Shown here in pieces: positions 4,006-25,007 of a stretch of DNA of 64,000 bases; within the stretch, counting starts at the first letter, position 1, and each line of letters begins with the position of its first letter. Both the position numbers and the translations under genes were made by a program. The stretch covers positions 7,258 through 71,257 of the forward strand of contig JADZFN010000012.1 in the NCBI GenBank assembly GCA_020849895.1. Direction: 5' to 3'. Under the pieces are notes generated by a model, which saw only the letters and a list, made by a program, of their open reading frames with translations, was not told the origin of the DNA and made no database searches. This stretch comes from Verrucomicrobiia bacterium (lineage in GTDB: Bacteria; Verrucomicrobiota; Verrucomicrobiia; JABWAM01).

Positions 4006-5549
4006 TGACTTCTGCTCTCCCCGTGATTCCCGTTCGGCGCGGCCCGCACCGAATCTGCTCTGATCAAATCAACGTGCCACGCCCCATGAACCCCAACCCG
4101 CCGCTTCTCATCCTCTCCCCGGCCTCTCCGACCGCTGCCTACACCCAGTACATTCGCCAGTTCGTGGATGTTGGCGTTCACTTTCCCTTCGCTGACGACT
4201 ACGCGTTGCCGCGCGGGCTGCCGTCGGACCTCGCGGGAATCCGGTGCGTGGTGATCGATCCGGCGCGGCGTGAGGAGTTTTCGCAGGGGCCGCTTGCGGC
4301 CCGGTTGATCGAGTTCGAGCGCGGCGGGGGCCACCTCTTCTGGCCCGACCCGAACACTCCCACCGGGGGAGCGACGGGCGACCTCATCGTCCGACATTCG
4401 GTCGCGCGCATCATCAACACCGCGGGCCTGCCCATGGGCGACCCGGCGATGATCGCGCGTTTGCAGGAGGTGGACGACGCGTTCCTGGTGGGCGCCTGCA
4501 AGGGTTCAACCGCGGACGAACTGGGCCAGTACGTGCGGATGAGGCACTATTTTCCGGAGCCCGTGGGCATGTGGGCGATGCCGACCGCGATCGAGGCCGC
4601 AGAGTTCTTTGGTGAACCGGCGCTTGCCGACCCGGTCTGGGCACATATCGCCGCGTATTACCCGCAGTGCGACCATCAACCCGACCGCCATGGCACCCAG
4701 CATTTCCTCGATTACGCGGAGAAGACCGGTGACCGGAAGCCCCTGGAGCATCTCGTCGCCGTTTGTCGAGCGTCGAACCCCTGGCCACGGCTCTGGCGGA
4801 AGGGAGACGTTTTCCTCAACTGCGACCTGCACGTGCCGGATGGCGCCGACGCGGACCATCCCCCGGAGATCGTCCTCCGCAACGCGTGGGTCTGGCCCGA
4901 GACCAACCTTTGGATCGGAGAGACGTATGCGACCGTGTCCCGCTTTACGGGGGAGGCGCGCTGGCTCGACCGCGCGGTGGCTCACGTGCTCGAGGCGCAC
5001 CGGTGGCTTTTCGAGCCGAAAACCGCCCTGTACTGGCACGTCGGACGGCCGGGCGGCCCGGACCTTCGTTCCGCGCCGTGGGCGCGAGGCGACTCTCATT
5101 TCCTTTGGGGCGTGCGCTCGATGCTGAACCTCATGCCGGAGGAGCATCCGAAGCGGCGAGACCTCTGCGGCCTGCTGGGCGACCACCTCGAGGGGTTGCT
5201 GCGCGTCCAGGGCGCCGACGGCCTGTGGCTCAACGTGCTCGATGCCTCCCCGTCGGATAGTCGGCCGTGCTCGTCGGCCTCCTCGCAATTCGTCCGCATC
5301 TACGCGCGGGCATACGCGAGGGGATGGCTCCGCGACGAGCGGATCCCGCCGATGGTGGAGCGCGCGTGGAAGGGCCTGAAGACGAAGATCTGGGACGGAC
5401 GCTTCCTTGCGTGGTGCGTGGGGACGTCGCACGGCCTCAACCGCCAAGTGTACCTGTCGCGGCCGCACGATTCCATGCGCTGCTGCCGCTCCGCGATCCT
5501 CTCCGCGTGGATGGAGATCCAGAAGATGCGCGGGGTGACGAAGGGATGA
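4005..5549 (+). CDS. glycoside hydrolase family 88/105-like protein (unsaturated uronyl hydrolase fold, PF07470-like)
   Basis: 514-aa frame. W-A-R-G-x-x-H-x-x-W-G (PWARGDSHFLWGV) and the LWLNVLD block resemble the (alpha/alpha)6 unsaturated glucuronyl/rhamnogalacturonyl hydrolases. Translationally coupled to the upstream lyase. Confidence 0.5.
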   Translation: MTSALPVIPVRRGPHRICSDQINVPRPMNPNPPLLILSPASPTAAYTQYIRQFVDVGVHFPFADDYALPRGLPSDLAGIRCVVIDPARREEFSQGPLAARLIEFERGGGHLFWPDPNTPTGGATGDLIVRHSVARIINTAGLPMGDPAMIARLQEVDDAFLVGACKGSTADELGQYVRMRHYFPEPVGMWAMPTAIEAAEFFGEPALADPVWAHIAAYYPQCDHQPDRHGTQHFLDYAEKTGDRKPLEHLVAVCRASNPWPRLWRKGDVFLNCDLHVPDGADADHPPEIVLRNAWVWPETNLWIGETYATVSRFTGEARWLDRAVAHVLEAHRWLFEPKTALYWHVGRPGGPDLRSAPWARGDSHFLWGVRSMLNLMPEEHPKRRDLCGLLGDHLEGLLRVQGADGLWLNVLDASPSDSRPCSSASSQFVRIYARAYARGWLRDERIPPMVERAWKGLKTKIWDGRFLAWCVGTSHGLNRQVYLSRPHDSMRCCRSAILSAWMEIQKMRGVTKG

Positions 5550-6166: not shown

Positions 6167-6222
6167 GGGTAGCCCGTGCCGTCCCGGCACGGGACCCGCC
6201 GTAGGGACACGGCGGGCTACCG
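6167..6222. repeat. REPIN GGGTAGCCCGTGCCGTCCCGGCACGGGACCCGCCGTAGGGACACGGCGGGCTACCG
   Basis: About 95 % identical to 5557..5610. Its terminal GGGCTACC supplies the TAG stop (6217-6219, minus strand) of the beta-propeller gene 6217..8259. Confidence 0.75.
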
Positions 6223-8259
6223 CCCTTCCACCTTCACGCGGAAGACCTCGCCATCCGCGGCGCCGTAGAGGTCGTTCCCGACCCACAGGACGGGATGGAG
6301 CGCCTTGGGAAGCTTTCCGACCGGGGTGAGTTCGAGGGTCTCCACGTTCAGTCGGCAGAGTGAGGAGTCCTTGATGATCCACCACGTCCCGTCCGAGGGA
6401 CGCTGGAAGGCGTTCTCCTGGAGAACCCCGTCCACGTCCGCCCACTTCACGACGGCCTTCTTCTCGAGGTCGTAGAGGTAGAGGGCGTCCTTCGCCTCGC
6501 CGTCGATCCTCCCGAGGAGGGCAGGATCCCTGCCGATCGCGGTGAGGAACCCGGTCGCGGGGAGCCCTTCCTTCACGGTAAGCCGTTCCACCTCCTTGAG
6601 GTCGAGGTCGTAGACCCGGAGTTGGGCGGTTCCGACCGGGGCGCCCTTGGTTTCGGAATGCACCCGCCCGGAGACCACCACTCGTCCGGCCTTCGGGAGC
6701 AGGGCGAAACCCTGGGGATCGACGTCCTTCATGTCAGACCCGAGCCCGAACTTCTTTCCCGTGGCGAGTTCGTAGTAGCCGAGGCCGGTTCCCGTGCTCC
6801 AGCGCTCGCGGTGTCCGAGGAGGTAGAGCCGGCCGTTGGGCCCGAGAAGGATCCCCTTGGAGTGGTGCGCCTCGGTGACGCCCTGCCCGAAGTAGCCGAC
6901 GAGGCGCGGGTTGTCGCCGGGGTTGCCGGCGTTGGCCTTCTGCGGCGCCTTCCAGGGCTGGTCCGGGTCATAGACGTACAGCCCCACGTTCGGATAGCCG
7001 ATGTACCAGGCCTTGCCCTCCGCGACGGTGATCAGCGGGCTGCTCGGGCCGGCCTTCCCGAAATATTCGAACTTCGAGACTTTGGTGTGGTAGCGGAAGA
7101 AGCCGTTGTACTGGACGACGCTTCCGAAAACGTCGCCATCGGGCAACTCGGCCATGGACACGATTTTCTGCGCCGCCGCGCTCTTCACGTGAAAGCTGAC
7201 CGTCTTGAAGTCCTCCTGCGCGCCGGCGGGGCGCCAGCGCACATGGGAGAGTCCCGAGGGATCCATTTCCCCGAGGCCCTGCGGATCGAGCTCGGGCGGC
7301 GTCCCCTCGGGGATGGGTTTCGTCAACTTCCACGGGATATGGGGATACGCGTTGTTCGCCAGGCGAGCGGAGTCCGGCGGCTGGGTCTCCGAGAGCTTGC
7401 CCTCCACGCACCACACGCGCTTGCCGCCGCCTTTCTCGGTGAGGCCGGCCGTGACAAAATCCTTCTCCGCCACCTCGATCCGCGAACCATCGCCCTTGCG
7501 CTCCGCAAGGAGGCGCTTTTCCCCGGTGTCCACGTTGAGGGCCACGAGTTCCCAGTCTCCCTGCCCGACGGCGACGTACACCCAGGGGAGGTCGAGGGCG
7601 AGGGTGTAGCCGTAGGTGAGGCTCGCGGGGCGGTTCGCCCCGATGTCGGTGAAGACCTTCCATTCGAGGGTGTCCGGGTTGATCCGCACGACCGCGGTCT
7701 TGCCGCTGTAGCCCTGGGTGGTCCCGTAGAGGCAGCCGTCCTTTCCGAGCCTGAACTGGTAAAGGCATCGGTCGTTGAAGAAGGGCTTCCACTCGGAGAG
7801 TTCCCCAAGGATCTTGAGCGCGTCCTCGACCGGGTCGTAGTACCACATCTGCATGAAGTCGACCGGGTAGAAGACGCGCCCGTTCTCCGCCCGGATCCCC
7901 AGGCGGCCGTGGAAGCCGGGCAGCCCCAGGGTCTTCACCTTGTTGCCGGCGAGGTCGGCGATGATCCACTCGGCGTCAGGCCGCAACTCGGGGTCTTCGA
8001 AGGCGACGTAGACGCGGCCGGTGCCCTCCACCTTCTTGCGCACGTACTTGAAGTCCGTGGTGCCCGCGTAGTTCATGAACTGCCCGATCCAGCGCCACTC
8101 GCCGCGGGAGTTCTCGACGAGGGTGCTCACGTTGGCGCGCGCCGTCTTCACCGGCGCGCCGAGGTTCTCGGCAAGAAGGGAAGGCACCTCCGCGCGGAGG
8201 AATGAAGTGGTGAGCAGCGAAGCGAGGAGCAGAACGGTGCGGCAGTTCATGGGGATCAT
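6217..8259 (-). CDS. secreted beta-propeller-like repeat protein, family paralog 2
   Basis: 680 aa with an N-terminal signal peptide (MIPMNCRTVLLLASLLTTSFLRAEVPS). Paralog of 2..1378 and a more distant relative of 13286..15382 (shared NPRLV..F.G and GHRERWSTGTG blocks). The antisense 527-aa ORF is shadow. Confidence 0.7.
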   Translation of the reverse strand: MIPMNCRTVLLLASLLTTSFLRAEVPSLLAENLGAPVKTARANVSTLVENSRGEWRWIGQFMNYAGTTDFKYVRKKVEGTGRVYVAFEDPELRPDAEWIIADLAGNKVKTLGLPGFHGRLGIRAENGRVFYPVDFMQMWYYDPVEDALKILGELSEWKPFFNDRCLYQFRLGKDGCLYGTTQGYSGKTAVVRINPDTLEWKVFTDIGANRPASLTYGYTLALDLPWVYVAVGQGDWELVALNVDTGEKRLLAERKGDGSRIEVAEKDFVTAGLTEKGGGKRVWCVEGKLSETQPPDSARLANNAYPHIPWKLTKPIPEGTPPELDPQGLGEMDPSGLSHVRWRPAGAQEDFKTVSFHVKSAAAQKIVSMAELPDGDVFGSVVQYNGFFRYHTKVSKFEYFGKAGPSSPLITVAEGKAWYIGYPNVGLYVYDPDQPWKAPQKANAGNPGDNPRLVGYFGQGVTEAHHSKGILLGPNGRLYLLGHRERWSTGTGLGYYELATGKKFGLGSDMKDVDPQGFALLPKAGRVVVSGRVHSETKGAPVGTAQLRVYDLDLKEVERLTVKEGLPATGFLTAIGRDPALLGRIDGEAKDALYLYDLEKKAVVKWADVDGVLQENAFQRPSDGTWWIIKDSSLCRLNVETLELTPVGKLPKALHPVLWVGNDLYGAADGEVFRVKVEGR

Positions 8260-8337
8260 CGAGGGAGTCGCGGGACAGTGGCGGCGAAGAAGACCCCGCA
8301 GTCAACGGCCTTGCGCCGTTGTTGGGATGCCATCGGT

Positions 8338-9003
8338 TTAAAACTCGAAGTAGAAATCCTCCTGGACCGTGTCTTTCAGATCGATTTTAGCCACTCGTCC
8401 GTCGGCGAAGGCGGCGTTGAATTTGGAATTGTGACAGGCGGACTCGTTGTAGTTGTCGATCCAGGCCGGCGGGGGGGTCCAACTTGGAATGAAATTATCG
8501 GGGCGAAAGGGCCCGCCGGACGCCCGGGAATCCATGAAGAGAACGAGACGCTCGGGCACCGCCTTCATGCTGGCCTTGCCATCGGACTCGTACACATACA
8601 GGACCCGGTTCAGTGCAATCTGCGTGTAGTGGTAGATGTCAGGGCTGACCGCATAGTTCTTGCTGGAGGGGCACCGCAAGATGGGAGTCAAAGTGCTCGG
8701 CTTGTTGTTTTGAGGGAAGCTCACGGGACCGATATAGGTGGTCAGGTTGCTTGCCCAAAAGTAGGTGTTCGGAGCGTGTTGCTCGTTGTCATTGGCATAG
8801 AGGCGAAGGGCCAAATTCAGTTGCCGCTGATTGTTCATGCAGACGATGGAGTGGGCCTGCTCCCGTGCTGACCTGAGCGCGGGCAGGAGCAGCGCCGCCA
8901 AAATTGCGATGATGGCGATGACGACCAGCAACTCGATGAGCGTGAAGCTCCTGCTGTCCGGCGGTTTCTTAATACACCTTTCCTGAAGGCGGGGAGAATT
9001 CAT
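8338..9003 (-). CDS. prepilin-type N-terminal cleavage/methylation domain protein with C-terminal H-X9-DG motif (DUF1559-like pseudopilin)
   Basis: Start at the ATG giving [43 protein letters not shown]. The track ORF start at 9159 is upstream read-through. C-terminal [12 protein letters not shown] matches H-X9-DG. Lies 78 nt upstream of the propeller gene. Confidence 0.8.
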
Positions 9004-9402
9004 CCGATTTGCCGGGAATCGAGGCCGCGGCTGGCCCCCTGCACACGGTCGAAAGGCCCATACCTTGGGCTCCCGCGAAACGCACGCCAACGGTCGGATC
9101 CTGAGGTCATGAGCCGTGGTCACAAGGGAGGTGGGGAGAAGGATGGCTTTTGAGATCATGAATCCATTGCGATTCTCCCAGCATGTCAGTCAGTCGTCAG
9201 CACTCGAACATTGATCATTGTATTGGCGATGGTGGAAGGATTCAGTATTTCGACATGTCCGTCCGAAAAACACAATTGATTGTCGAGGAATATGCGTGAT
9301 GGGGGTAGAGAGCGAGACGGCCCGTTCGATCTCGCGATCGTGCTCCCCGCGAACGACCCCGACATCGTCCCGCTCGTGCGGTCCTCGGAATGACACGGTC
9401 CG

Positions 9403-11964
9403 CTACGATTCCACTGCCTTCCAGGGCTTCTCGATCAACGGCGACACCCTTCCCTTCACCACAGTCGCGCCTTGCTCATCGCGGAGGAACGAGCCGTTGA
9501 CGACCGCCGCGCAGCGGCGATTCCCGTCCGCTCCGAAGCGCTCGACCGCGAGCCACCCGTCCGTCCGCCCGCCCACCGCAGGGCGCGCGTCCCAGCCACC
9601 CCAGCGGATGTGGAGAACATCCCGTGCGCCCTCGCGGAAGACCACCTCCACACAGGCGCCTCTGTCGTCCGTCCCCACCACCCGCACGGCGGGCGTCAGC
9701 GGCTCTCTCGCCGAGGGAACGAGCGCCCATACCTGCCGCATCGGCAGCGTCCCTTCCCAGTGGTGGATGGCGCAGAAGGCGGGGAAGCAGTTGAAATCCT
9801 GCGCCACCCAACCTTGCACGGGGTCCATCTGGCCGCTCACGGCCCGCAGCGACCAGCCTTCTTGGAGGGCGGGCGCGATCTCGAAGTTGGACAGCGCGGC
9901 GCGCGCGGTCGCCGCGCGGAGACCTTTCACGACGACGGGCATCGGCGCGAAGTGCCACAGCGCCTCCGCGGAGTGCTTCCCCTCCCCCTCGAGCTCGTCG
10001 ACCACGAGCCAGTAGTCGGGCTTCAGGAACAGGACCGCGCGGCGGTGCAGGGGCTCTCCCGTCACGCCGGGGTAGCCCCCGGCGTAGACGCCGGCACCCA
10101 CGTCGAGAGTCCCTCCGCTCGCCCAAAAGATCTCGCTGGAGACGTCGCGCTTCCTCGACTCTCGCGTCTCGGAGACGGCCCTCTGCTGGCCTTTTCCGTC
10201 CACGAGGAGCGTGTTGTGGGACGCCGTGGAGCGGTAGTACCGGAAGAACTCGTCCTCGCCGTAACCCGCGATGCCGGGGTCCACGAGGAAGGGCGAGCCG
10301 AAGGCATAGGTCTCGACCCCGAGGGCATCCTCGTGCTGGTGGCCCGCGCCGAACGGCCCGACGTCGAAGAGCGACCACCGGTCCTGCGCGTTCACGCCCG
10401 AGCGCATGACCAGGAGACCTGCGTTCCGAAAACCGTGCGACTCGCCCGACGGAGGTCGCCCCTCGGCGCCGCCGGTGGCGAGCCAGAGCATCCCCGCGTC
10501 CTTCCAGAGCCGCGCCCCCTCTCGAAGGAAGAGATCATGGGACCGCAGGAATCCGCCGGAATCGTTGTGAGCGGGGCAGGTGCCGTCCGGCCGCACGAGT
10601 CCCGCGATCGCGCTGTACATGGCGCGGAGCCGCGCGCCATAAACGCGCGGCATGGGGAAACCGTTGAGCCGCGCCACTTCGAAGGGCTGGACGAAGGCGT
10701 TCGCCGAGCTGATGTGGTAGCCGGGCGAAAGCTCGTTGTGGATGCCATCGGGGTAAACCGTCTCGGCCGCCAGCGCCGCGAGGCGGCCCAGGCCCTCGTC
10801 GCGCCACGAGGCGGACCGGCGGTGCTCTGGGAACGAAATCCCGATAAGCGAAAGCGCCTGCGACTCGATCACCGTCCAGTTGGTGCCCGAAATCGAACCG
10901 TGCCGAAGGAGAAACTCCGCGTGCTCGTGCATGGACTTGAGCATGTCGAACCAGGTGCGGTCCCGCAGCGCCGGTTCCCCGAGGAGACCGAAGAAGACCT
11001 GCAACCACGTCCGCTTGAAGCGGCACCCCGCCGTGAGGGTACTCCAGGCGCGACTCCCCTTGCCATCGTGCCCGACCGGCACCGGCGAGGCGGCGATCCA
11101 CGACGAGAGCACCTCGTCGATCTTGGCGGCGTACTTCCGTTTCCTCGCCGCGTGCCACGCGAGGAGCAGGTCCACCACGAAGTAGTGGCGGTGCAGGCCG
11201 TCCGGGTCCCCGACCTCGCCCGTCGCCAGCTTCCAGTCGAACGTCGGACCGAGGTCCTGTCCCCCGACCACGTTGCGGCAGGCGAGGTCCGCCACCGCCA
11301 GCGAGGTCGGCCACGCCGGGGGCGCAGCGAACGGGAGGCTCGGCTTCTTTCGCCGCGCGAGGTACGCGCGCAAGCCGCGGATCGCCCCCTTAAAGTCCCC
11401 CCGCTCCACCGAGAGCCGAGCCGCCTTGAGGCCGGGGCGGCCCCAGTCCCACGCCCGCGCGAAACCGGTGTCGGTCAGACGCGTCCCCGCAGGCACGCGG
11501 CGCTTCTGCAGGCGCACCGACGCGATCCGCGTCGGGCCGCCGTAGTAACCCCGGACTTGAACGCGCGTCACCCTTCCCCAGATCGAGCCCGGGACGAGGC
11601 CGAAGTTCTCGATCGGGTAGAGCACGTCGCGCCAGCCGTGCCAGCGCTCGCGCGTCATCGCGCCCGCACCGGTGATGCACCGGAGCCTCGGCTTTCCCTC
11701 ACGCTCCACGGTCACCTGGAGCTCGCACCCTTCCCCCTCGCGGAAACCGACGCGCAAAACGACCTGGTCGAAGTCTCCCCAGTCTCCCGCGCAGGGGAGC
11801 TCGACCTCCTGCTTCGACGCGTCGTATAGGGCGCAGGGAACGCCCTCGGGGGAACCTCTCCCGCCATCGGCGAGCCCCGGTGCCGCGGCGAGTTCCCCCG
11901 CGCCGAGCAACACCCGCTCGGCGAGGAGCTCGTCGGTCAGAGTTTCGGGGATCGTGGAGGCCAT
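9403..11964 (-). CDS. heparinase II/III-like family protein (putative polysaccharide lyase)
   Basis: Hepar_II_III core GHQHEDALGVETYAFGSPFLVDPG plus the NELSPGYH and AHNDSGGF blocks. Paralog of 1375..4005. ATG at 11964 (MASTIPE...), 1 nt after the stop of the upstream gene. The antisense 785-aa ORF is shadow. Confidence 0.7.
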   Translation of the reverse strand: MASTIPETLTDELLAERVLLGAGELAAAPGLADGGRGSPEGVPCALYDASKQEVELPCAGDWGDFDQVVLRVGFREGEGCELQVTVEREGKPRLRCITGAGAMTRERWHGWRDVLYPIENFGLVPGSIWGRVTRVQVRGYYGGPTRIASVRLQKRRVPAGTRLTDTGFARAWDWGRPGLKAARLSVERGDFKGAIRGLRAYLARRKKPSLPFAAPPAWPTSLAVADLACRNVVGGQDLGPTFDWKLATGEVGDPDGLHRHYFVVDLLLAWHAARKRKYAAKIDEVLSSWIAASPVPVGHDGKGSRAWSTLTAGCRFKRTWLQVFFGLLGEPALRDRTWFDMLKSMHEHAEFLLRHGSISGTNWTVIESQALSLIGISFPEHRRSASWRDEGLGRLAALAAETVYPDGIHNELSPGYHISSANAFVQPFEVARLNGFPMPRVYGARLRAMYSAIAGLVRPDGTCPAHNDSGGFLRSHDLFLREGARLWKDAGMLWLATGGAEGRPPSGESHGFRNAGLLVMRSGVNAQDRWSLFDVGPFGAGHQHEDALGVETYAFGSPFLVDPGIAGYGEDEFFRYYRSTASHNTLLVDGKGQQRAVSETRESRKRDVSSEIFWASGGTLDVGAGVYAGGYPGVTGEPLHRRAVLFLKPDYWLVVDELEGEGKHSAEALWHFAPMPVVVKGLRAATARAALSNFEIAPALQEGWSLRAVSGQMDPVQGWVAQDFNCFPAFCAIHHWEGTLPMRQVWALVPSAREPLTPAVRVVGTDDRGACVEVVFREGARDVLHIRWGGWDARPAVGGRTDGWLAVERFGADGNRRCAAVVNGSFLRDEQGATVVKGRVSPLIEKPWKAVES

Positions 11965-11965
11965 C

Positions 11966-12766
11966 CTACTTCCCATCCGCGAGCGAGAAAGAAACCTCCA
12001 ATTCGAACCCGCCCTGTGACGCGAACTCGCGTGAGGTGAAGGCGGCGTAGCCGTGGTCCTGGGCCCAGAACACAAACCCGCAACTTTTCCCCTCCTTCGC
12101 CATTGCCTGCACGAGTGCGGTCACGTCCGCGGTGAAACGCCCCTTGTCGGCGGAGTTCCAGCTGTCGGCCTGGACGGGCACCTCGGGGTCCTGGGTGAAG
12201 TCCTCCGTGCCGAAACCCCGCTTGTCATTGGGTGTGCCGGCCGGGACCCTCCACTCGGCGTCCTTCGCCTTGCCAGCCCAGGCACCCCCGTACTGAAAGG
12301 CGGCGTCAAAGGTTGGCCCATAGTTCGCGTTCTGCTTGTCGTCCGCCTCGACGGCGCCTCCCGTTCCCTCGGGGCCGGCGTCGCCGGGCGTTACGTACGA
12401 GAGCCAATCGGTGAGGCAGCGCCCCACGAAGATCTTGCCCTTCGCGGCGCTGTAGTCGTCCACGTAGAAGCTGCCGCAGAGGGTGGCCTTCACGATGCGG
12501 GCGCCCGGCGGGACGTGGCTCGGCCCGATGAGGCCCTTCACGCCCACCAGCCCGTAGTAGAAGGTTTGTCCGCTGGACTGAAAACCAACGCGCACCTCCT
12601 TCAGTTTCCCTTGGTTGAAGTTCTCGCGCCCGCCGACCACGTCGTGACCAACGTAGGTGTCCTCGATCTGGTCCGGAGCGAAATGGAGGATCTTCACCTG
12701 GGCGGAGGCCGCGCACGCGCCGGCGACGGTCAGGACGGTCGCAAGCAGGAGGGAGGAAGGTTTCAT
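11966..12766 (-). CDS. secreted ConA/LamG-like domain protein (putative carbohydrate-binding)
   Basis: Start at MKPSSLLLATVLTVAGACAASAQ (signal peptide). The 468 nt of open frame upstream lacks protein-like composition. LamG-like block GSFYVDDYSAAKGKIFVG. Tightly coupled to the downstream lyase. Confidence 0.45.
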   Translation of the reverse strand: MKPSSLLLATVLTVAGACAASAQVKILHFAPDQIEDTYVGHDVVGGRENFNQGKLKEVRVGFQSSGQTFYYGLVGVKGLIGPSHVPPGARIVKATLCGSFYVDDYSAAKGKIFVGRCLTDWLSYVTPGDAGPEGTGGAVEADDKQNANYGPTFDAAFQYGGAWAGKAKDAEWRVPAGTPNDKRGFGTEDFTQDPEVPVQADSWNSADKGRFTADVTALVQAMAKEGKSCGFVFWAQDHGYAAFTSREFASQGGFELEVSFSLADGK

Positions 12767-13285
12767 GGAGAACCCATCATGCGCCACCGCGCGAGTTTCG
12801 GGCAATCGCACGCGCGTGGCAATTCCTGGGAGCGAGGTCATGGGAACGGGGAAAGTTCGCGGACGATTTCGGCGTAACGGCGGACGCGCGCGACCGGGGT
12901 TGCGGGGGTGACGGGGCTGCCGAGGCTCATGATGAAACGGCCGACGTTGCGGCGGCCCGCGTCGAGCTGGCGGGCGAGATCGCCCTCCCCCGAAGCGGCA
13001 AAATCCTCGGGGTCGAAAGGAACGGCCGCCGGGACCATCGCATCCACCCCTGCTTCCGTCCCCGCGAGGCGCGCGAGGGAGCGAGTGATGCGCTCCGGCG
13101 ACCACGGGCTTCTCAAGGCGACGCAACTCCCCGCCGCGCGGATCCACGAGGCACACGCCACTCTCCGGCTCCTCGATGCGGAACCGCTCGCGATCTCGGC
13201 GCGGATGGGAGGGACGGACGTCGAACCAGTCCATCGCGGGGCGAACGGAGGAGCTTGCCCACGTTCCGAGGCACGCGGAACCACT

Positions 13286-15382
13286 TCAATCCCTGACGGC
13301 ATAGGGCGCCCCTTGCCTCGGGGTCTCGAGGACCTTCCGCGCAGCGCTCACGCGGCGAATCTTCGGAGCACCGTTCACGTAGAGGTTGCCCCCGAGGAAG
13401 AGGAACCGGTGCGCGCCGGGAACGCGGCCGAGGGGGAAGATTTCGAGAGGGTCGGGGGCGATGCGCAGGATCGCATCCATCTCCGCGGCCACGGAGACCC
13501 CGGTCCAGACCTTGCCGTCGGGGCCAAGGATGAAGTCGAAACCCTTGGCGGGCAGGGCGGTGGTGCCCTGCCTCCCCTGGATCAGGCCCGTGTACCGGAT
13601 GATCTCCTCGATCTTCTTCTTCCGGAGGTCGTAGCGGTAGACGAAGGTGGTCTTCTGCTCGGCGTCGGGAGCGAGACCCACCAGCTTGTTCGGTGCCACC
13701 TCGGCGACCCCCGTGAGCGCCTTGAAGCCCGGCAAGGGCACGTGGTCTTCGAGGTATTTCCGCTCGGCGAGGTCCACCACCCGCAGGCGGGCCTCGGCGG
13801 GAACCGCGGCGACAAGCTGGCGATTGGTCTGCACGGTCGTCGAGAGGAACAACCGCTTGCCGTCAAGCGAAAGGCTCGCCCAGGAAACGGCGAGGTGGTC
13901 GTTCCCGCCGCGGTCCTCGATCTCCCCCCTGGTCCCGTCGGCGGGGTTGTACCACACGACGTCGAACCCGAGGAAATGGCGATGCCTCGCGGTGACGATG
14001 TAGACGCAGCCATCCGGCCCCTTGAACATCCGCACCCCCATGTGCCCTCCGGAGCTGGTGTGTCCCGGAAAGTGGGCGACGAGGCGCGGGTTGGCGCGAG
14101 GGTCCTCGTCGGGGATCGCCGGTCGTCCCGGGAGGTCCACGCGGGAGGTCGAAGGCTTGGTGGTGTCCCAGCGCATGAGGGTGGTGCTCGGATAGCCGCT
14201 CGCGTAGACGGTCGGCCCGATGGCGACCATGCAGCGCCCGCTCACCGGCGCGAACGGGGCCTGGATCCCCTTGCCCGTTTTCGGGTCGAAGACGATCGCC
14301 GGGTTGTAGGGTCCCCCGAGCGCCGTGATGCGTCCATCGTCGAGCGCGGTGAGCGCCAGGGTGGGTTCACTCGCGAGGGGGGTGTCCAGGCGGACGTCCT
14401 TCCACTTGTTTTCGTCCTTCGGGTCCTGGTAGTGGATCGCGATCTTGGTCTGGCCCTCGAACAGGGGCGATTCGTCGAGGAGGACCTTCGGAGGAGGCTC
14501 AGCCACAGGCTCCGGAGCCTTGGCGGCGGGGGCATCGGCAGGCAGCGGCGTCGCCCGCCCGTTCGCCACGCCGTAGCGTTGCCAGGGGTCGTTGGGATCC
14601 TGCATGTTCACCCGCGTCGAGAAGTTGGTGCCACTCCCGTTGATGTAGCCGTCCACCGGCGCTGTGAGGATCGTCTCGCGGGCCTTCGTCTTCTTGTTGA
14701 CGGCCACCAGCAACCACGGGCTCTTGCCCCGCAGCGCGGCGTAGATGAAGTCGTTGTCCGAGCCGAGCTCGTAGACGTAGCCGTGCTTGTCGGAGAGGAT
14801 GCCGAACTTCGTCAGCGCCCCGCTCCCCGGGTCGTACATGCTCAACTCGGAGGCGGCGGCCGCGCCCATGGCAACCACGCCGTCCTGGGCCACCGACATT
14901 CGGAACGCCCCGACTTCGGCGTTCTCAAACGGGAGCGGCAGTTCGCGGATCGTGTCCGTGTCGGGATCGTAGACGTGGAACCCCCCGGGCAACCATGTGG
15001 TGAAGTAGAGCTTCCCGCCGGACCAGGCCGTGCGGCTCTGGCCGTAGCCCTTGATCTTGGGGTGCAGCTTGAGCTTGCCGTCGTCCAGCGTGAGCGTGGC
15101 GACGCGAAACTCCCGTGCGTCCCGCTTCTCCTTAAGGACGAGCATCTGGCGCCACTGCTTGGTGGAGGTCTGGAAGATGGGTCCCTTGCTGACCCAGGAC
15201 TGCGCGCCGGCGATGCCGACCTCCTCGGTCTCGAGGAGGGGGGTCGCCTCGGCCTTCAAGGGGACCGCGGGCATCTCGTCCAACGGATTGACGGCAAGGG
15301 CGACGCCCGCCAGGAGAATCGCGCAGCCCAGCGTGGCAAAAAGTCCTGAGAGGTTCTTGGCTATTCGGGTCGTCGGGTTCAT
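13286..15382 (-). CDS. secreted beta-propeller-like repeat protein, family paralog 3
   Basis: 698 aa with a signal peptide ([30 protein letters not shown]). Shares the [10 protein letters not shown] / [12 protein letters not shown] architecture with 6217..8259. Its start overlaps the upstream H-X9-DG gene by 4 nt. Confidence 0.65.
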
Positions 15383-16059
15383 TTGGGTTCAAAGGTGTGC
15401 ATCGCGCTCGAACTCTGCGAGAGTTCCTCGATCTTGTGGGACGCGGCGTGGCCGTCCACGAAGAAGACGTTGGCGCGGTTGCGGTGGTAGTATCCGGTCT
15501 GGTTCGTCGGGCTGCCGGGCACGTAGTAGGGGCGGTCGGATGGATCGCGACCGGCGTCCACGAAAAGCACCGTGGCCGCGGGACGGAGGACCGCCGAGAG
15601 AGGGATCGGGATCTCGAAGTAGCGCGGATTCGCCGGGTCCGAGGGCCAACTCGCGCCAAGGAAGCTGTTGAAGCCGTAGAGGGTATCCAGGCCGCCGAGG
15701 TTGGTGGCCTTGGGCTGGCCGGGACAGCGAAACACGGGCTTGATCTTGTCCGTGTCAGACACGGTGGCGAACTTCCCGAGGTTGAGGTAGGAATAGAGCC
15801 GTCCCGTCCAGTACTGGTTCACGGGGTTGTCCGTGGCGTATTGGGTCCAACGGTAGGAAAACCTACCCCCGGACTCGTCCGCGTACATGAGGCCCGCCAC
15901 GCCGATCTGGCGGAGGTTGCTTATGCACTGAGCGCTCCTCGCGGCGTCCCGCGCGTTCCTGAGCGCAGGGAGAAGGAGTGCTGCAAGGATCGCGATGATC
16001 GCCACGACGACCAGCAACTCGATCAAGGTGAAGGAATCCCGGTAAGAGGCTCGATTCAT
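15379..16059 (-). CDS. prepilin-type N-terminal cleavage/methylation domain protein with C-terminal H-X9-DG motif
   Basis: [33 protein letters not shown] followed by [12 protein letters not shown]. 4-nt overlaps on both sides (PEP-CTERM gene upstream, propeller downstream). Confidence 0.85.
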
Positions 16060-17789
16060 TCGGGCCGCACGCGGTGCGCCCGGCGAACGAGGAGGAGCGC
16101 GCCAAGGGCGACGAGGGCCAGCGAACCCGGCTCGGGGATCAGCGCGATGGGCAGGAGAGACCCCCCCCCGTTCAACAGGTAGCTGCCCCCGGTGCCCCCC
16201 GAGGCCAGGACGGGGTTAAGGTCGGCGACGTAATAGATGTTGAAGCTGCTGATGAGCGAGTTCGTGGCGATGGGGCTGAGGACCTGCACGTAAAGCGCCG
16301 TGCTCGCTAGAGAGTTGCCCGAGAAGAGCTGGAGGCGGTTGCCGCTCGCGAACCCGTCGAGGTCGAGGGTGCCGAGGGAGAAGTTGTTGCTGAACCCGAT
16401 CGTGGTCGCGCCGAGGTCGAACCCCGCCAACACGAGCCTCTGCGTGGCTGTGGCGGTCACGGGGCTGAACTTGAGCGTGCCGTCGAAACTGAATGCGTTC
16501 GAGACCGCGAGCGGTGCGACGTTGGAAAACCCCAGCGTGCTCTTGACCTCGACCAGGGCCGACGCTCCGACGGCGAGCTGCTGGAGGTTGGTCCCGAGCC
16601 GCACCCGGTCGGCGAGGAGGACGCCGTTGGTCATGTTGAAGGAACCCTTGCCGAGGTCCCCCACGCGCACGTGCGCATTGAGTGAGCCGTTGGTGACGAC
16701 GACCCGCCCACCATACTGCTCGAAGTAGCCCACCCCGTTCGCGTGGGCGCCGACCATCAGGGCGCCGGCGCTCGTGCCGTCGCCGTTGGCCGTGAGGAGA
16801 CCGCTGGCCACGACGAGCGTGACGGTCCCGCCGTTGTTCGATCCGACACGGATCTCGCCGGTGTCTGCGCCCACGCGGACGACGGTGGTGGTGCCGCCCT
16901 GCTGCACGAACCAGGCCCTTGCCCCCACTCCGTTGCCGATGCTCAGGTCGTTGTTGGCGTCGTTCATATTCCAGACGGCGCCCCGGTTCGTGATGCTGGC
17001 GTTCTGCCCGCTGAGGGCCACCCTGCCGCGCGTGCGGTCGAAAACCCCTCCGGCGAGGGTGAGCGATGCCGAGGTGTCGCCGCTCACGCTGACTGTCACG
17101 CTCCTCAAAAGGCTGGTCTCGGAAAGGCCGCTGTTGTCGATGTAGGCCACCTTCGTGCCCTGGCTGTACATACTGACATGCAGGAGGGTGTTGGTCACGT
17201 AGAGGCTGCCAGCCCCGATGACATTGTCGCCCACGGTGAGAGTGGCCGAATGGGTCCCGTTGGTGACGATCAGGCTGCCGCCGCTGAATGACGCCATCGA
17301 GCCGCTGCCGGAGCCGCCGATCCCGAAGTCGCGGTTGCCGGCCGGGGAGGTGATCGCCACGGAAGACCCGTTCTTCGCGATGAGCTGGCCGCGCACCCGG
17401 AGGTTGGTACCCACCGAGAGGGCGGTCCCGTCGAGAACGAGCACGCCCCGCTCATTGACCACGTTGGTGGTGGTGATGCGCCAAACCGTGGAAGCAGTCA
17501 CGGCGGAGAGCGTCTGCGTGGGGCCGGCTCCGCCCGTCTGGTGGCCGACCGCGAGGCTGAAGTTGGTGAGGGAAGCCCCGTCCGTGCCCGCGTCAATGGC
17601 GACCGTGTAGGAGGAGGCTGCGTTGGTGACAAAAACCGCGTGCGTCGCGGAGGGAGCCGCCACGGCGCTCCACTGGGCGGCATTCGTCCAGTCGCCGGAC
17701 CCGCCGGCCCAGACGTTGGTGGTGGACTGCGCACGGCCCGAAGCGGCGAGCGCCACAATGAGGAGAGCGATGCCCAAGAAACGGTTCAT
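16056..17789 (-). CDS. PEP-CTERM sorting domain surface protein with autotransporter-associated beta-strand repeats
   Basis: Signal peptide [22 protein letters not shown]. Gly/Ser/Thr/Asn-rich beta-strand repeats. C-terminal [23 protein letters not shown] is a PEP-CTERM anchor. A GGAGG RBS lies 7 nt before the ATG. Confidence 0.8.
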
Positions 17790-17918: not shown

Positions 17919-19322
17919 CTATCCGCCGAGGCCCTCGCCTTCCGGTGGCTCGACGCGCTGAACGGACCCCGCCGAGTCCCTCGAGAGGGAGGCGCCGCGG
18001 ATGCGCGTGAAGCGGATCGAGGGCCCGGCCGAACGGGGCGCGGCCACCTCCAGCCGGTGGACCCGAAGGTCGCGCCCGTCCTCGACCTGCAGCTCCGGCC
18101 CCTCCTCGCATGCGAGGCGCACGTCCTGCAACTCGAGTGCGGCCACGTGCCGCGCCCAGAAGGCCTTCCTTGCCGCGATTCGCACCCCGACCATCCGGAC
18201 CCCCTCGAGAGGACACTCCTCAAGCCCGTGAAGGTAGGCGGCCTGTTCGGCCCCCGTCGCCTCGACCTGGTGGAAGCTGAAGTTGCGGAAGCGCGGGGTG
18301 CGCTCGCTGAGCGGCTCCGGCGGCATTGGCCGCGCGTAGTGCATGTCGAAGTGAAACGGATGCGGCACGCGGTCCATGACCACGTTGCTCGCGAGGAGGT
18401 TCTCCACGAGACCGCCGCGCCCGCGCATGGATTTCATCCGAAAGCCGGTCTCGGTCCCGATGAACAGGCAGTTGCTCACGGTGACGTTGCGCACGCCCCC
18501 CGACATGTCCGACCCGATGACCACTCCCCCGTGCCCCCGCCGCGTGACGCAGTTGGCGATCACGACGTTCTCCGTGGGCCCCAGGCCGGCCTCGTTCCAC
18601 CCGCTCTTGAGGCAGATGCAGTCGTCGTTCACGTCGAGGTCGCATCCCAGGACGAACACGTTGCGGCAGGAATCGAGGTCGATCCCATCGCCATTGCAGG
18701 CGCCGGGCGGGTTGCGGAGATTCACGCCCTCGACGCGCGCGACGTCGCAGGAGATCAGGTGCAGGTTCCAGAAGCCCGAGTTCTGAAGGGTGACTCCCTC
18801 GACCCGGACGTCCCTGCAACGCTCGAACTCGACGAGGCGCGGGCGGTGCCATATGCTTCGCTGGACTTCCTCCGGACGGGTCGGCATGGGCTGGGGTGGC
18901 GGTCGCTTCTCCTTCGGGACCGCGTAGTAATCGCGGATCGGCTTCCAAAAGGCTTCACCCTGCCCGTCCACGGTGCCGCGCCCCGTGATCGCGACGCGCT
19001 CGCAGTCCACCGCGTTTACGAGGGCGTCAATCGTGAGCTGCGTCGTCCCCGAGTACCGCCGCGTGACGAGCCGGTAATGCGGGCGCTCGGGCGTCCCGAG
19101 GAGGGTCGCGCCTGCCTCGAGGTGGAGGGTCACGTGGCTGCGGAGATCGATCGGCGCGATGAGATAGCGCCCCGGCGGAACGACGACGCACCCTCCGCCG
19201 GCCTCCCCGCAGGCGTCGATGGCCGCCTGGAGAGCGGCGGTGTCGAGGGCAAGTCCATCCCCCCGCGCGCCGAAGTGGCGAGGATCAAACACGCGCGGGT
19301 TTTTGCTCGTCGGATTGCTCAT
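17919..19322 (-). CDS. glycoside hydrolase family 28 (polygalacturonase/rhamnogalacturonase-like)
   Basis: GH28 signature blocks NGDGIDLDSC, NDDCICLKSG, RRGHGGVVIGS and GFRMKSM in a right-handed beta-helix context. No signal peptide. 23 nt after the upstream lyase gene. Confidence 0.8.
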   Translation of the reverse strand: MSNPTSKNPRVFDPRHFGARGDGLALDTAALQAAIDACGEAGGGCVVVPPGRYLIAPIDLRSHVTLHLEAGATLLGTPERPHYRLVTRRYSGTTQLTIDALVNAVDCERVAITGRGTVDGQGEAFWKPIRDYYAVPKEKRPPPQPMPTRPEEVQRSIWHRPRLVEFERCRDVRVEGVTLQNSGFWNLHLISCDVARVEGVNLRNPPGACNGDGIDLDSCRNVFVLGCDLDVNDDCICLKSGWNEAGLGPTENVVIANCVTRRGHGGVVIGSDMSGGVRNVTVSNCLFIGTETGFRMKSMRGRGGLVENLLASNVVMDRVPHPFHFDMHYARPMPPEPLSERTPRFRNFSFHQVEATGAEQAAYLHGLEECPLEGVRMVGVRIAARKAFWARHVAALELQDVRLACEEGPELQVEDGRDLRVHRLEVAAPRSAGPSIRFTRIRGASLSRDSAGSVQRVEPPEGEGLGG

Positions 19323-19345: not shown

Positions 19346-22300
19346 CTATCGGACCCGGATCAACCGTCGTCCATTGGCCAAGGCCTCCTCGGTGAAGGAT
19401 GTCGTGATCCCCCCGGTCTCGTCGATGACCGAGCTCGCGGCCTTCCAGGTAGCGCCCTCGTCGGCGGAGACCTCCACTTGTCTTCCCGGGAGGGTGAGGG
19501 TGCAGGCCGCGTTCGCACGGAGCTCGAAGACACCCGGGCCCCGCGCGTCGAGGCGCCGCAGGAAAAGGTGCGCGGCGACTGAAACCCGGTCGCCGGGGCC
19601 CTGGTCGTGGAAAACCACCATACGGCGTCCATCCCCGTCGGAATCCGGCAGGTCCGCCTCCTGGAGTTTGCGGCCTTCCACGCGCAGCCGGTAGGTGTCA
19701 CCCGGCATGTCGACGGTCCACTCGCGATCCCCCCGCTCGTTGCGGACAAGTTGCTGGTGGTAGGGCCAGCCGGGGTGCGGATCATTGGACGCGTCGAGGT
19801 ACTCTCGGGGGTGCTGGCGGGTGAAGAACATCAGGCCGTCCTCGCGGATCCGGGTGACCTCGAGATCGAGCATCTTCTCGCCGGGCTGGACCTCCACGAG
19901 GGTCTTGCCATCCGGCGCAAACTTGCGCTGCTTTTCCGTCGCAATCATGGCCAAGGTCAACTTGCCGTCCCCGTTGGCGTCCGTCACGTCCTGCTGCAAG
20001 AGGGTGTTCTGGTGGCGTCGTGCCGCGGGCCATCCGGTGTAGAAGAACCGGTCGCCGAGGGTGACCGAGACGCGGCCGATCGCTTTTCCCGCCTCGTTGA
20101 CCGCGGTCGTTCCCTCATACGCCTCGGGGTGATAGCTGTGCAGGTACGGGGGAACATCCAGCTCGGCGAACCCCTCCTTCGCGTCCAGGCGTCCCACACC
20201 GCCCTGGTAGACGGCCGAGGGGCGGTCGAACTCCAAGCGCGTGCCGTTGATGCGGGCCGCTTTCCGCGTGGTCTGGTGGCGGGGGTTGGCCACCTCAAGG
20301 ATCTCGCCATCGAGCAGCCGGGCCGGCCACGCGTCGCTCAGGGTGGCGATCCGTCCGCCGTCCGTCGTCGCCCTGATCTCCGAGCGGTATTCCGCCCGCG
20401 CGAGCCTCGCGGAAATCCCGGAGTGGGAGACCTCCGTCCCTCCCACGAGGCCGAGCAGCCGCAACCCTCGGGCATCCCGGGAGATGAACGCGAGATTTCC
20501 AGAAGCCCGCGCGTTTCCTTCGATCGCAGCGGACTTCGTGCGATCCGGGCCGGAGAAGAGAAGGTCGGTCTGACCGAACGCGGTCTTCACCTCGATCGCG
20601 ACGGCCCGGGTGGCGCCCTCGCCCGCGTTCTCAACCTTCAACTGTCTCACCGAGGTCACAAAGGGCTGGCCCGCGTACGGTTCGATCACCGAGGGATAGA
20701 CCGAGCCCGAGACCTCCGCACCGTCGCGGCGCACGTAAAGGAACGGAAAATTGTAGAAGCGCGAATCCATTTTCTTCGCGTACCAGTTGGCCACCATCAC
20801 CTTCTCCCCGCCGTGGCCGAGGAGGTGGACCTTCGTGAATTTCTCGGGGGCGGCCGGGTCGTACGATTTCCCGGACATCGCTCGCTCGGCGTTGCCCAGC
20901 TTGATCCCGTTCACGACCTCTTCCTTGCGCCGCAGTTTCCAGGTCGCCTCCAGCACCTCGGGGGCGACCCCCTCCCTTGCAGTGCCCTCGAGGTGCTCCT
21001 TCAGGTAGCGCTGGGCGACCCCACTCGTCGCCGGCGCCAGTCCGGCGTTGCTGGTGAACTCCTCCGAGACACACCCGTGGAAACACCAGGTGTGCGTCCT
21101 TCCGCCCCGGACGCGGAAGACATCGAACAGGTAGCCGCTGGGGGTTCTCTCCCTTCCGTTTCCCGGGTCGCACATCACCTGCAGCACGCCGCGTGCGTAG
21201 AGAGAGACCTGCGGGTGCGTCTCGGCCCTGGCCCCGCCGAGCACGTACTGCGCGCCCGGCAGTGGTTTGAAGGCGTCCAGCCACCCGAGGGCGGTCGTGT
21301 TCTGCGGCCCGCCGGAGAAATCCTGCTCGTCCACCTGGACGACGTTGTGCACGTACGAACTCATGCACGACGGGTGGCCGTACCGCCCAAGATGCCGACC
21401 TCCAAGATCGCTGCTCATTCGGAAACCGTGCGCGTATACCTCCAGGTCAAGGGTGTCGGGGTGCGCGTGCCCCGAACCGATTCCAAAGCGCAGCATCGCC
21501 GCGTTCTTGTGCCGCAGGTCCTCCGCGTCGGAGCCTTCCTCCAGCACGGCGATCCCGAAACCCTCGAGGACCCGGCTCGCGGCGTGGCGGACCGGGTCTC
21601 GTCCTGCCTGCGCAGCCTTCACGATCTGCTGCCATTCCGCGTCCGGGCAGGCGCCCTGGCCCATTTGGTTCGCAAGCACCCAGGCGATCCGCGGGTCTTT
21701 CGTCCATTCCCAGCTTCGGAGGAAGTACTCGCGCCACGCGGGGTCGTACATGAGCTTCGGGGCGAGGGTCGGCGTACCTACGTCGCCCACGCCCGCCGCA
21801 TGCCCGCCGGCCACGTGCAGCCCGAGGATCGAGGCCGCCTGCGCGGCGAGTTGCGGGAAGCGGGACGGGTTGACCACGTCGAAGCGCTTGTCCCCGCCCG
21901 CCGAGACGTGGCGGGCCAGCAAGTCCGCCACCTCGAAGAGTTCGTCCTTCGACTCGAAAGGGGCGTAGTAAGTCGAGCCGATGTAGTTCAGGCCGTCGCG
22001 GCTGTAGTTCCCCACCACGCTGTCGGGAAAACCGCAGAGAGTGTTGCGCAAGTAGATGCGTCGGAAGTATCCGTCAAGGATCCGCGTGCTGACTTCGTTC
22101 GGGCCAAGCACGGCCGCCGAGACGGGGACCACGGTCTGCGCGTAGAAGACGTGCTGCACGCCGTCCTGCGCCCCGCGCTGCACCAGGAAGGTGTCCAGCA
22201 GGCGAATGACGTCTTCCGGCGACCTCACCCAGGGGATGAACCGCCCCAGGCGCGCGGCGAGCTCGGCGTTTCCCTGGATGTAGGGGAAGAGCTTGTCGTA

Positions 22301-24900: not shown

Positions 24901-24989
24901 GGGGAACTCCTTCCGCGGCGGCGACCTGCTCAAGCTTCCGTGGGCGTCGGCGACAGGCAAGGGGATTGCCGTAGGGAAATCATGGCCCG

Positions 24990-25007
24990 GACGGATTGGC
25001 CTACTCG
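24990..25007 (-). promoter_or_regulatory. conserved 18-bp promoter-region motif GACGGATTGGCCTACTCG (copy A), 89 nt upstream of the Gfo/Idh/MocA-lyase-GH28 operon start and just downstream of araC
   Basis: Identical to 17876..17893. Lies in the 111-nt araC-operon spacer. Confidence 0.45.

Follow-up and report, generated by a model that had tools for sequence, protein, structure and literature searches.

Do the small prepilin-like proteins encoded directly upstream of secreted beta-propeller proteins in a verrucomicrobial degradation locus act as dedicated partners of those propellers, or do they belong to the locus as a whole? The question is raised by a 64,000-nucleotide stretch of DNA from a Verrucomicrobiia bacterium (contig JADZFN010000012.1 of assembly GCA_020849895.1, forward-strand positions 7,258 to 71,257), which was analysed over its full length and is referred to here as the window. 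Two of its genes, pil1 and pil2, encode proteins resembling the DUF1559/H-X9-DG family, and each lies immediately before a gene for a propeller protein (propA and propB, respectively); a third propeller gene, propC, is truncated at the window edge. DUF1559 is among the largest paralog families of Planctomycetota and Verrucomicrobiota and has no assigned function; Planctopirus limnophila has 68 paralogs, of which two are essential (PMC10632474). An earlier note on this DNA had proposed a fixed pair, in which the pilin-like protein would be the dedicated type II secretion or surface-display partner of a new carbohydrate-active propeller enzyme. We find that the locus is a utilisation cluster of the type found in the Planctomycetota-Verrucomicrobiota-Chlamydiota (PVC) group, with accessory pseudopilins and PEP-CTERM proteins interleaved, and not a dedicated pseudopilin-propeller module. 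Here DUF1559 genes are interspersed with genes for exported proteins in a degradation cluster that is conserved, and the stop and start codons of neighbours often overlap; with the failure of the fixed-couple claim the finding becomes a useful lead rather than a discovery.

Neighbours of the prepilin and propeller genes

Both prepilin-propeller pairs are on the minus strand. pil1 ends with a TAA codon at 8338-8340 and propA begins with the ATG at 8259, leaving a gap of 78 nt, and pil2 and propB share the 4 nt ATGA; the coordinates, gap and overlap given in the earlier note all check out. The PEP-CTERM gene upstream is coupled to the pil2-propB pair by another ATGA, which was read at 16056-16059 in agreement with that note, and pil2 is thus overlapped on both sides. 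The two prepilin-like open reading frames (ORFs), the only ones in a six-frame motif scan of the 64-kb window, both directly precede one of three propeller genes among ~45 window genes. Rough arithmetic puts the chance of this under random gene order at ~1e-3, and prepilin-propeller adjacency in this lineage is beyond chance. Although a 7-bp hairpin can form in the pil1-propA gap, folding is not better than for shuffled sequence (z = -0.02), and sites resembling a terminator or promoter are absent; a terminator or structured element in the gap was ruled out on these grounds. A recent tandem duplication of the two pairs was likewise ruled out, since propA and propB are 25% identical, over the C-terminal half (E = 1e-16), and the similarity of pil1 to pil2 is confined to the N-terminal ~100 residues. 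So strong a divergence makes the pairs old, and the fallback explanation of the earlier note, a mere local tandem duplication, is also wrong.

Loci and propeller proteins from other genomes and contigs are cited here by our L and P numbers. The locus L002 is syntenic with the window (GH88 82%, lyase 74%, propC 82% and propA 85% identical). Its propC ortholog is preceded by a GFO/IDH/MocA oxidoreductase gene and not by a prepilin gene, which makes a prepilin partner of propC just off the window edge unlikely. At the other end of propC, the TGA stop codon (1376-1378) abuts or overlaps the start of the Hepar1 lyase gene (1375 or 1384).

The pairing was surveyed from the propeller side in 18 loci from species-representative genomes and in further contigs with family members, scoring for every propeller copy a prepilin ORF that ends no more than 400 nt upstream on the same strand. 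Of ~30 propeller genes with sufficient flank, 7, from ~3 independent lineages, have a prepilin gene as their immediate upstream neighbour. Besides propA and propB of the window, these are the orthologs or paralogs of propA in L001 (72% identical), L002 and L024 (72%; here the prepilin was recognised by its H-x9-DG tail), the ortholog of propB in L108 (76%) and, in L021, one copy at 34% identity. Propeller copies without a prepilin come from metagenome-assembled genomes (MAGs) of Verrucomicrobiota, Planctomycetota, Pirellulaceae, Phycisphaeraceae, Kiritimatiellia and Victivallis and from metagenome contigs. Since most propeller loci have no prepilin neighbour, the pseudopilin cannot be essential for propeller function.

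From the prepilin side, 80 metagenome loci were retrieved by means of an alignment of seven prepilins drawn from the window and from related loci, and a hidden Markov model (HMM) of the propeller family matched the six-frame ORFs of none of them (0/80). Some 49 downstream ORFs were called naively and 20 of these were scanned against Pfam. The commonest identifiable downstream gene encodes a small CarboxypepD_reg protein (4/20). The other matches were sulfatase, FGE-sulfatase, pectate-lyase-like beta-helix, GH65-like, DUF4838, DUF6807, DUF4465 with PEP-CTERM, ZnuA, an acetyl-xylan-esterase-like hydrolase, a xylose-isomerase-like TIM barrel, an ABC-2 permease and an aminotransferase, and at least three other downstream ORFs are further prepilin genes. 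Unrelated neighbours of H-X9-DG genes elsewhere, which the earlier note had named as what would count against it, are thus present in related and metagenome loci, and the pairing is not fixed: the genes that follow prepilins in the related loci also include GH88, DUF1961, Hepar_II_III and a protein of the 1,400-residue type. The CarboxypepD_reg proteins (weak matches, ~120-200 aa) follow DUF1559 genes in L047, L056, L080 and L099, several of them beginning with a signal peptide that ends in Cys, and L053 has a similar small downstream protein with no Pfam match; DUF1559 with such a small protein may be the commoner pair for the prepilin family.

The related loci point to a different neighbour of pil2. 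PEP-CTERM orthologs, 38-73% identical, precede the pil2 orthologs in L105-L108, and the junction from PEP-CTERM gene to pil2-clade gene is a 4-nt overlap in 5 of 6 cases. L105 and L106 carry a 56%-identical pil2 ortholog in the order PEP-CTERM, prepilin, 1414-aa protein, PEP-CTERM-like, pil2 ortholog; the propeller is absent, and a lyase gene of the Hepar1 type, with its own upstream prepilin, converges on the pil2 ortholog. The order in L107 is PEP-CTERM, prepilin, Laminin_G_3-PEP-CTERM, prepilin, and L108 retains the complete triple of PEP-CTERM, pil2 and propB. The pil2 clade is thus accompanied steadily by a PEP-CTERM gene upstream and not by the propeller. Among the 80 sampled metagenome prepilin loci this 4-nt-overlap pair was found in none. 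The sites of the overlapping pair are L105 1-1385 and 5759-8340, L106 2421-4978, L108 712-3104 and window 15379-17789. The window PEP-CTERM protein itself scores just below the cut-offs of the relevant models (18.4 against 20.7 for PF07589 and 15.3 against 16 for TIGR02595), and no exosortase turned up among the window genes scanned.

L021 is a cluster of the same type as that of the window (GH88 51% and lyase 50% identical), and in it three closely related prepilin genes stand before the DUF1961, GH88 and propeller genes, respectively. The protein of ~1,400 aa is 31% identical between this locus (13117-17352) and the window, and 66% identical in L105 (1458-5702), where a prepilin gene directly precedes it. 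Prepilin genes account for 3 of the 7 genes of L105, 3 of the 15 of L021 and 2 of the ~14 of the window cluster; in P. limnophila, whose genome we take to hold ~4,300 genes, the 68 paralogs would be ~1.6% of genes. The prepilins upstream of propA orthologs have head domains 28-31% identical to that of pil1, no closer than random paralogs, and the flanking and propeller genes at the same loci are 72-85% identical (L002 5876-6652 and L001 2-742 compared with window 8338-9003). The prepilin has kept its position as its sequence was turned over, through either rapid diversification or replacement by a paralog.

The propellers belong to the core of such clusters and do have constant neighbours. L002 (Verrucomicrobiota), L007 (Planctomycetota), L014 (Kiritimatiellia) and the window each combine an A/C-type and a B-type propeller with GH88; a Hepar1-type lyase is also present in L002, L014 and the window, and L021 combines A/C-type propellers with GH88 and a Hepar1-type lyase. 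GH88 orthologs, 48-82% identical, adjoin propellers in L002, L007, L014 and L021, and Hepar1 orthologs do so in L002, L014 and L021, with L105 also listed; B-type orthologs of propB are found in L002, L007, L014 and L108. GFO/IDH/MocA family genes adjoin propellers in L002 and in the P0010 and P0036 loci, an AraC gene does so in the P0036 locus, and L005 has an AraC-like match. The evolutionarily constant partners of the propellers are the GH88 and Hepar_II_III lyase genes, not the prepilins, and the family is tied to them by neighbourhood in three phyla and by one gene fusion. This fusion, P0188 (1527 aa, a metagenome cluster representative), joins a double propeller (28-671) to Big_9 and Hepar_II_III_C domains. 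Other fusion partners are an N-terminal FecR domain (P0248), Laminin_G_3 (P0187, P0309), FGE-sulfatase (P0225, P0294) and Ig-like domains.

The pilin-like and double-propeller proteins

pil1 and pil2 both carry the class III signal motif FTLIELLVV and a literal H-x9-DG, in accord with the prepilin identity given to them earlier. The signal comprises a charged leader, Ser at -1, Phe at +1, Glu at +5 and a hydrophobic stretch, with the residues DSRS (pil1) and YRDS (pil2) before the cleavage point; position -1 is G, A or S in most family members. Pfam N_methyl is matched at 33 bits by pil1 and 29 bits by pil2 (cut-off 21.2). For PF07596 (DUF1559; cut-off 23.3 bits) pil2 lies above at 31.9 and pil1 below at 17.5, and for TIGR04294 (cut-off 19 bits) both lie below (17.1 and 12.7). 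The AlphaFold2 model of pil2 (pLDDT 82) is composed of a 50-residue alpha1 helix (residues 12-62) and a small head with a four-stranded antiparallel beta-sheet (128-130, 164-169, 195-200 and 205-209), typical of pilins, with H-x9-DG forming the last hairpin. Over residues 5-62 the protein can be aligned to the N-terminal parts of pilins of known structure, and a Foldseek search with the whole model returned no match with E < 1. In 43 homologs, no variation was seen at C45, C112, N131, H192 and D202, and next to none at G203 and H204. On these motifs and this model, pil1 and pil2 are predicted to be genuine type IV pilin or pseudopilin-like proteins.

Both share N_methyl, the conserved Cys pair and H-x9-DG with the PF07596 SBP_bac_10/TIGR04294 family, and NCBI names pil2 DUF1559. 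They differ from typical members in length, ~220 aa being the short end (the Pfam model has 268 positions), and in having no downstream CarboxypepD_reg gene. GspG (TIGR01710) was ruled out, since scores of 36.6 and 30.8 bits against a cut-off of 88.85 come from the N-terminal 50-60 residues only; a solute-binding fold, as the Pfam name SBP_bac_10 would have it, was ruled out by the pil2 model, which is far too small and pilin-like. The family is huge, with 7,720 of 8,000 scored candidate proteins matching at E <= 1e-5, and extends beyond the PVC phyla to matches named Omnitrophica, Ratteibacteria and Armatimonadetes. No prepilin peptidase was found among the window genes scanned, and the pilus or secretion machinery in them comprises a T2SSE-type ATPase alone. 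This T2SSE-family (PilT/PilB-like) ATPase of ~398 aa (34904-36100, minus strand) adjoins a 396-aa ORF (33754-34944) with no Pfam match.

The AlphaFold2 model of propA, built with 31 homologs, is all-beta and of high confidence (pLDDT 91, pTM 0.86), and its two tandem seven-bladed propellers (approximately residues 27-290 and 337-676) bear out the propeller label of the earlier note. propC is 47% identical to propA, close to the ~50% given before, and its full-length protein is P0017 (694 aa, same MAG). propA has no match in Pfam or NCBIfam, and the family profile found nothing significant among PDB sequences. The best fold neighbours of propA are YncE, WD40 proteins, virginiamycin B lyase and Bacteroides hybrid two-component sensor domains; Foldseek against the PDB returned small-subunit processome WD proteins, LRP6, BT4673 and BT4663, with TM-scores of only ~0.3.

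The expected tie to known carbohydrate-active enzymes did not appear: PDB sequences, Pfam and NCBIfam yielded no polysaccharide lyase (PL) or glycoside hydrolase (GH) family for propA, and none is among the 50-60 fold matches listed. PL11, PL22, PL24 and PL25 are single propellers, and GH74 enzymes consist of two seven-bladed propellers with BNR/Asp-box repeats. propA shares with all of these a propeller fold and a context of uronate-polymer degradation; it differs from them in lacking any sequence or profile match, and none is among the structural matches listed. Membership of PL11, PL22, PL24 or PL25 was ruled out on this basis and by the double propeller, and a GH74-type tandem propeller, although its architecture is shared, was rejected for want of a BNR/GH74 match in Pfam, PDB sequences or the fold matches listed. 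Like BT4663 (a heparin/heparan sulphate sensor) and BT4673, the window protein has two tandem seven-bladed propellers, is extracytoplasmic and belongs to an acidic-glycan degradation locus; unlike them, it is free and secreted, with no membrane or kinase part, shows 10-12% identity at the TM-score given above and has no Reg_prop/Y_Y_Y match. A hybrid two-component sensor was ruled out by that score, the missing Reg_prop match and a protein that ends after its second propeller.

A word-indexed search found 52 propeller relatives, all annotated as hypothetical, the named ones coming from Verrucomicrobiae, Kiritimatiellia and Planctomycetes; an exhaustive profile search over clusters at 50% identity found 396 at E <= 1e-30, 1,281 at E <= 1e-10 and 2,648 at E <= 1e-3. 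The A and B types retain an R-[E/H]-R motif (R484-R486 in propA), as well as His465 and Tyr479, and the FecR-fused P0248 has lost the motif; R477, E485, D431 and N450 are further conserved polar residues of propA. We infer that this Arg-x-Arg/His/Tyr site of the second propeller is a predicted acidic-sugar site that would serve recognition or processing of acidic oligosaccharides, and an enzyme and a non-catalytic binder are about equally likely. As a clearly delimited group, the double propellers are a candidate for a novel family of carbohydrate-active or glycan-binding proteins.

Published systems and competing explanations

Pseudopilins embedded in such clusters already have a published precedent. 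In the isolate Verruconatronum alginivorum, described in 2026, the lyase cluster induced by alginate contains the gene for a PulG-like pseudopilin, which has 67 paralogs and may be related to pil1 and pil2; a further pseudopilin is over-expressed during growth on alginate. The study proposes export of alginases by type II secretion and inferred six transfer events for the family (PMC13274419). The window resembles this case, as described, in having a highly paralogous verrucomicrobial pseudopilin gene among lyase genes for acidic polymers. It differs in that a propeller or PEP-CTERM partner is described for the window locus alone and in that V. alginivorum comes with induction proteomics, the window with the genes of an uncultured MAG. 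The fishing-rod hypothesis of Boedeker et al. (2017) has planctomycetal polysaccharide uptake proceed via fibres of dedicated pilin-like proteins (PMC12078418), and substrate-specific pilin paralogs embedded in clusters would fit such polysaccharide-binding fibres. The hypothesis, as summarised in that review, names no gene family and no genomic link to degradation clusters. In the literature searched, nothing links DUF1559, H-X9-DG proteins or prepilins to propellers or PEP-CTERM proteins. A looser parallel is the archaeal bindosome of Sulfolobus, whose sugar-binding proteins carry class III prepilin-like signal peptides: there, too, pilin-type signal peptides place sugar-utilisation proteins at the cell surface. 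In the bindosome the binding protein itself bears the pilin signal, whereas here it is borne by a small protein distinct from the large exported ones. The parts of the locus with no published description, namely the coupling of PEP-CTERM and pseudopilin genes, a prepilin position conserved through turnover of the sequence, and the propeller family including its fusion to a lyase, are good leads, and the locus offers PEP-CTERM/pil2, pil2/propB and pil1/propA as concrete candidate pairs.

On balance, we consider it probable, by a modest measure, that positions 1-26 kb form a PVC-type cluster for the utilisation of an acidic polysaccharide that contains uronate and that its pseudopilins, expressed along with the exported proteins of the cluster, are minor subunits, specific to this cluster, in a shared filament of the type II secretion or type IV-like kind. 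DUF1559/H-X9-DG genes would, in this lineage and at least one other, be interleaved before or behind any exported protein, whether propeller, lyase, GH88, lectin-like or PEP-CTERM. Their products, expressed together with the cluster and cleaved by prepilin peptidase, would join a shared type II secretion pseudopilus or type IV-like fibre as minor subunits, where they may help to export or surface-tether cluster proteins or to capture substrate, rather than act as propeller-specific chaperones. The propellers, for their part, would act with GH88 and the Hepar_II_III lyases on acidic glycans.

Several points weigh against this explanation. No prepilin lies upstream of 21 scanned propeller copies with enough flank, nor in the P0010 and P0036 loci, and the survey of prepilin neighbours, with its naive ORF calls, had no matched control for the frequency of exported enzymes. 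Type II secretion or type IV pilus machinery is missing from inside the cluster, the sole T2SSE-type ATPase lying ~9 kb past the end of the AraC gene, and Foldseek gave the pil2 head no structural match pointing to sugar or cargo binding. The substrate hints diverge, GH28 suggesting a pectin-like polymer and the Hepar_II_III genes a glycosaminoglycan- or alginate-like one. Expression, processing, filament incorporation and protein contacts of these genes are all predictions.

The proposal that each H-X9-DG pseudopilin is the dedicated secretion adaptor or display anchor of its downstream propeller, the propeller being a new lyase or hydrolase, we hold to be quite improbable. It can draw on the presence of two old and divergent pairs in a single window, one of them joined by ATGA, on the recurrence of the pair in L001, L002 and L024 (propA type), L108 (propB ortholog) and L021 (the 34%-identical propeller), and on residues H465, R477, Y479, R484, E485, R486, D431 and N450, which could form an active site. 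It must, however, accommodate 23 of ~30 propeller genes with no prepilin partner, prepilins of the same clades preceding unrelated proteins, a pil2 ortholog in L105/L106 that has a converging lyase gene and no downstream propeller, and fold and sequence matches listed with no PL or GH family among them. The head domain, 28-31% identical upstream of propA orthologs that are 72-85% identical, speaks against the word dedicated; the other half of the claim, a link to type II secretion or surface display, stays plausible in view of the V. alginivorum proposal (PMC13274419). At the opposite extreme, the absence of any functional coupling, with DUF1559 genes being abundant, mobile and duplication-prone, accumulating in exchanged regions of carbohydrate-active enzyme genes and hitch-hiking next to propellers, strikes us as unlikely. 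The huge paralog families (68 in P. limnophila, 67 in V. alginivorum with its six inferred transfers), the 7,720 of 8,000 candidates matching, the diversity of prepilin neighbours, the turnover of the prepilin at a fixed position and an IS200/RayT-like gene beside propA all speak for it. Tight or overlapping junctions conserved over 38-79% divergence (for PEP-CTERM and pil2 in 5 of 6 loci, for pil2 and propB in L108 as well as the window) and a consistently co-directional orientation are harder to reconcile with it, as is the induction at the protein level, on substrate, of a cluster-embedded pseudopilin in an isolate (PMC13274419).

We think it very unlikely that the propellers are ligand sensors or scaffolds like the twin-propeller domains of Bacteroides, with the pilin-like and PEP-CTERM proteins forming a separate surface structure. 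BT4673 and BT4663 are among the top double-propeller Foldseek matches, family member P0248 is fused to a FecR anti-sigma sensor domain and an AraC regulator lies in the cluster. Yet the similarity to two-component sensor domains stays at TM ~0.3 with no Reg_prop match, the window propellers have a signal peptide and neither a transmembrane nor a signalling domain, the FecR-fused member lacks the R-x-R/His motif kept in the cluster-associated types, and three paralogs per cluster are many for a sensor. To the explanation of the pseudopilins as cluster-specific minor subunits we add a more speculative proposal, to which we give a rather small chance: that DUF1559/H-X9-DG pseudopilins would be the missing adaptor layer of PVC polysaccharide utilisation, each degradation cluster having fast-evolving subunits of its own that plug its surface proteins (PEP-CTERM, double propeller or lyase) or its substrate into a shared fibre of the type II secretion or type IV-like kind, with the propellers as a new family binding or cleaving acidic glycans together with the Hepar_II_III lyases. 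Were this true, adaptor pseudopilins would be the functional counterpart of the SusD and surface-glycan-binding proteins of Bacteroidota, which would explain the huge paralog families.

Gene content of the window

The window belongs to a Verrucomicrobiae MAG with IT578_ locus tags. Genes were picked with the guidance of third-position GC (GC3), the window having ~66% G+C. Positions 1-26 kb hold a single carbohydrate-degradation cluster (Table 1), and the remainder is mostly housekeeping genes. On the plus strand the order is propC, Hepar1 lyase and GH88/105; the minus-strand set comprises, by coordinate, propA, pil1, Hepar2, a 422-aa ORF, propB, pil2, PEP-CTERM, GH28, a 1426-aa protein, the GFO/IDH/MocA oxidoreductase and AraC, the last being the probable cluster boundary. 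The polysaccharide-lyase setting described for the pairs thus stands, with two Hepar_II_III lyase-like genes, GH88/105 and GH28 as neighbours.

Table 1. Features of the degradation cluster, with coordinates in the window and the basis of each assignment
Feature	Position	Strand	Basis
propC, C-terminal 458 aa of an A/C-type double-propeller paralog	2..1378	+	truncated at window edge
Hepar1, heparinase II/III-like polysaccharide lyase	1375..4005	+	Pfam Hepar_II_III_N + Hepar_II_III_C; weak HepC match
GH88/GH105-type unsaturated uronyl hydrolase	4005..5549	+	Pfam Glyco_hydro_88, E = 1.7e-27
propA, secreted double 7-bladed beta-propeller, 680 aa, uncharacterised family	6217..8259	-	signal peptide; AlphaFold2 model
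pil1, prepilin-like H-X9-DG protein, 221 aa	8338..9003	-	N_methyl 33 bits; FTLIELLVV
Hepar2, second heparinase II/III-like lyase	9403..12075	-	Pfam Hepar_II_III_N 136 bits, Hepar_II_III_C 111 bits
422-aa ORF between propB and Hepar2	11966..13234	-	GC3 0.78; NCBIfam DNRLRE_dom 25 bits, below cut-off
propB, secreted B-type double-propeller paralog, 698 aa	13286..15382	-	propeller HMM E = 2e-146
pil2, DUF1559/H-X9-DG prepilin-like protein, 226 aa	15379..16059	-	Pfam N_methyl + DUF1559 above cut-off
putative PEP-CTERM surface protein, 577 aa	16056..17789	-	C-terminal IPEP, hydrophobic stretch, RR
GH28, polygalacturonase or rhamnogalacturonase-like	17919..19322	-	Pfam Glyco_hydro_28, E = 4e-34
1426-aa protein without known domain, conserved in cluster type	19346..23626	-	no Pfam or NCBIfam match
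GFO/IDH/MocA oxidoreductase	23623..25011	-	Pfam
AraC-type regulator	25012..26031	-	Pfam HTH_18

The real start of Hepar2 is probably downstream of 12075; the 422-aa ORF has no Pfam match. GH28 scores below cut-off against all of the NCBIfam PglA, galacturonidase and rhamnogalacturonidase models. Pfam detects no SusC- or SusD-like domain in any gene of the 1-26 kb region, and a strict polysaccharide utilisation locus of the Bacteroidota type was ruled out by the lack of a SusC/SusD pair, leaving a PVC-type cluster of carbohydrate-active enzyme genes. Between GH88 and propA (5606-6130, minus strand) lies a remnant of an IS200/RayT-like Y1 transposase (Pfam Y1_Tnp, 31.5 bits), which looks like a lineage-specific insertion, since L002 has only ~280 nt in its place.

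Other observations concern the window beyond the cluster. A 796-aa protein (31416-33806, minus strand) combines DUF4388 and a Ser/Thr protein kinase domain with a C-terminal FGE-sulfatase-like domain. An 863-aa ORF (44178-46769, plus strand) contains SBP_bac_1 and BPD_transp_1 together and is directly followed by a 620-aa permease with a long N-terminal extension (46770-48632, plus strand); the fusion could be real, or it could reflect an unrecognised frameshift or gene boundary. Finally, positions 52001-54000 show a strong local AT skew of +0.265 within a 1111-aa TMEM260-like O-mannosyltransferase/TPR gene (50727-54062, minus strand).

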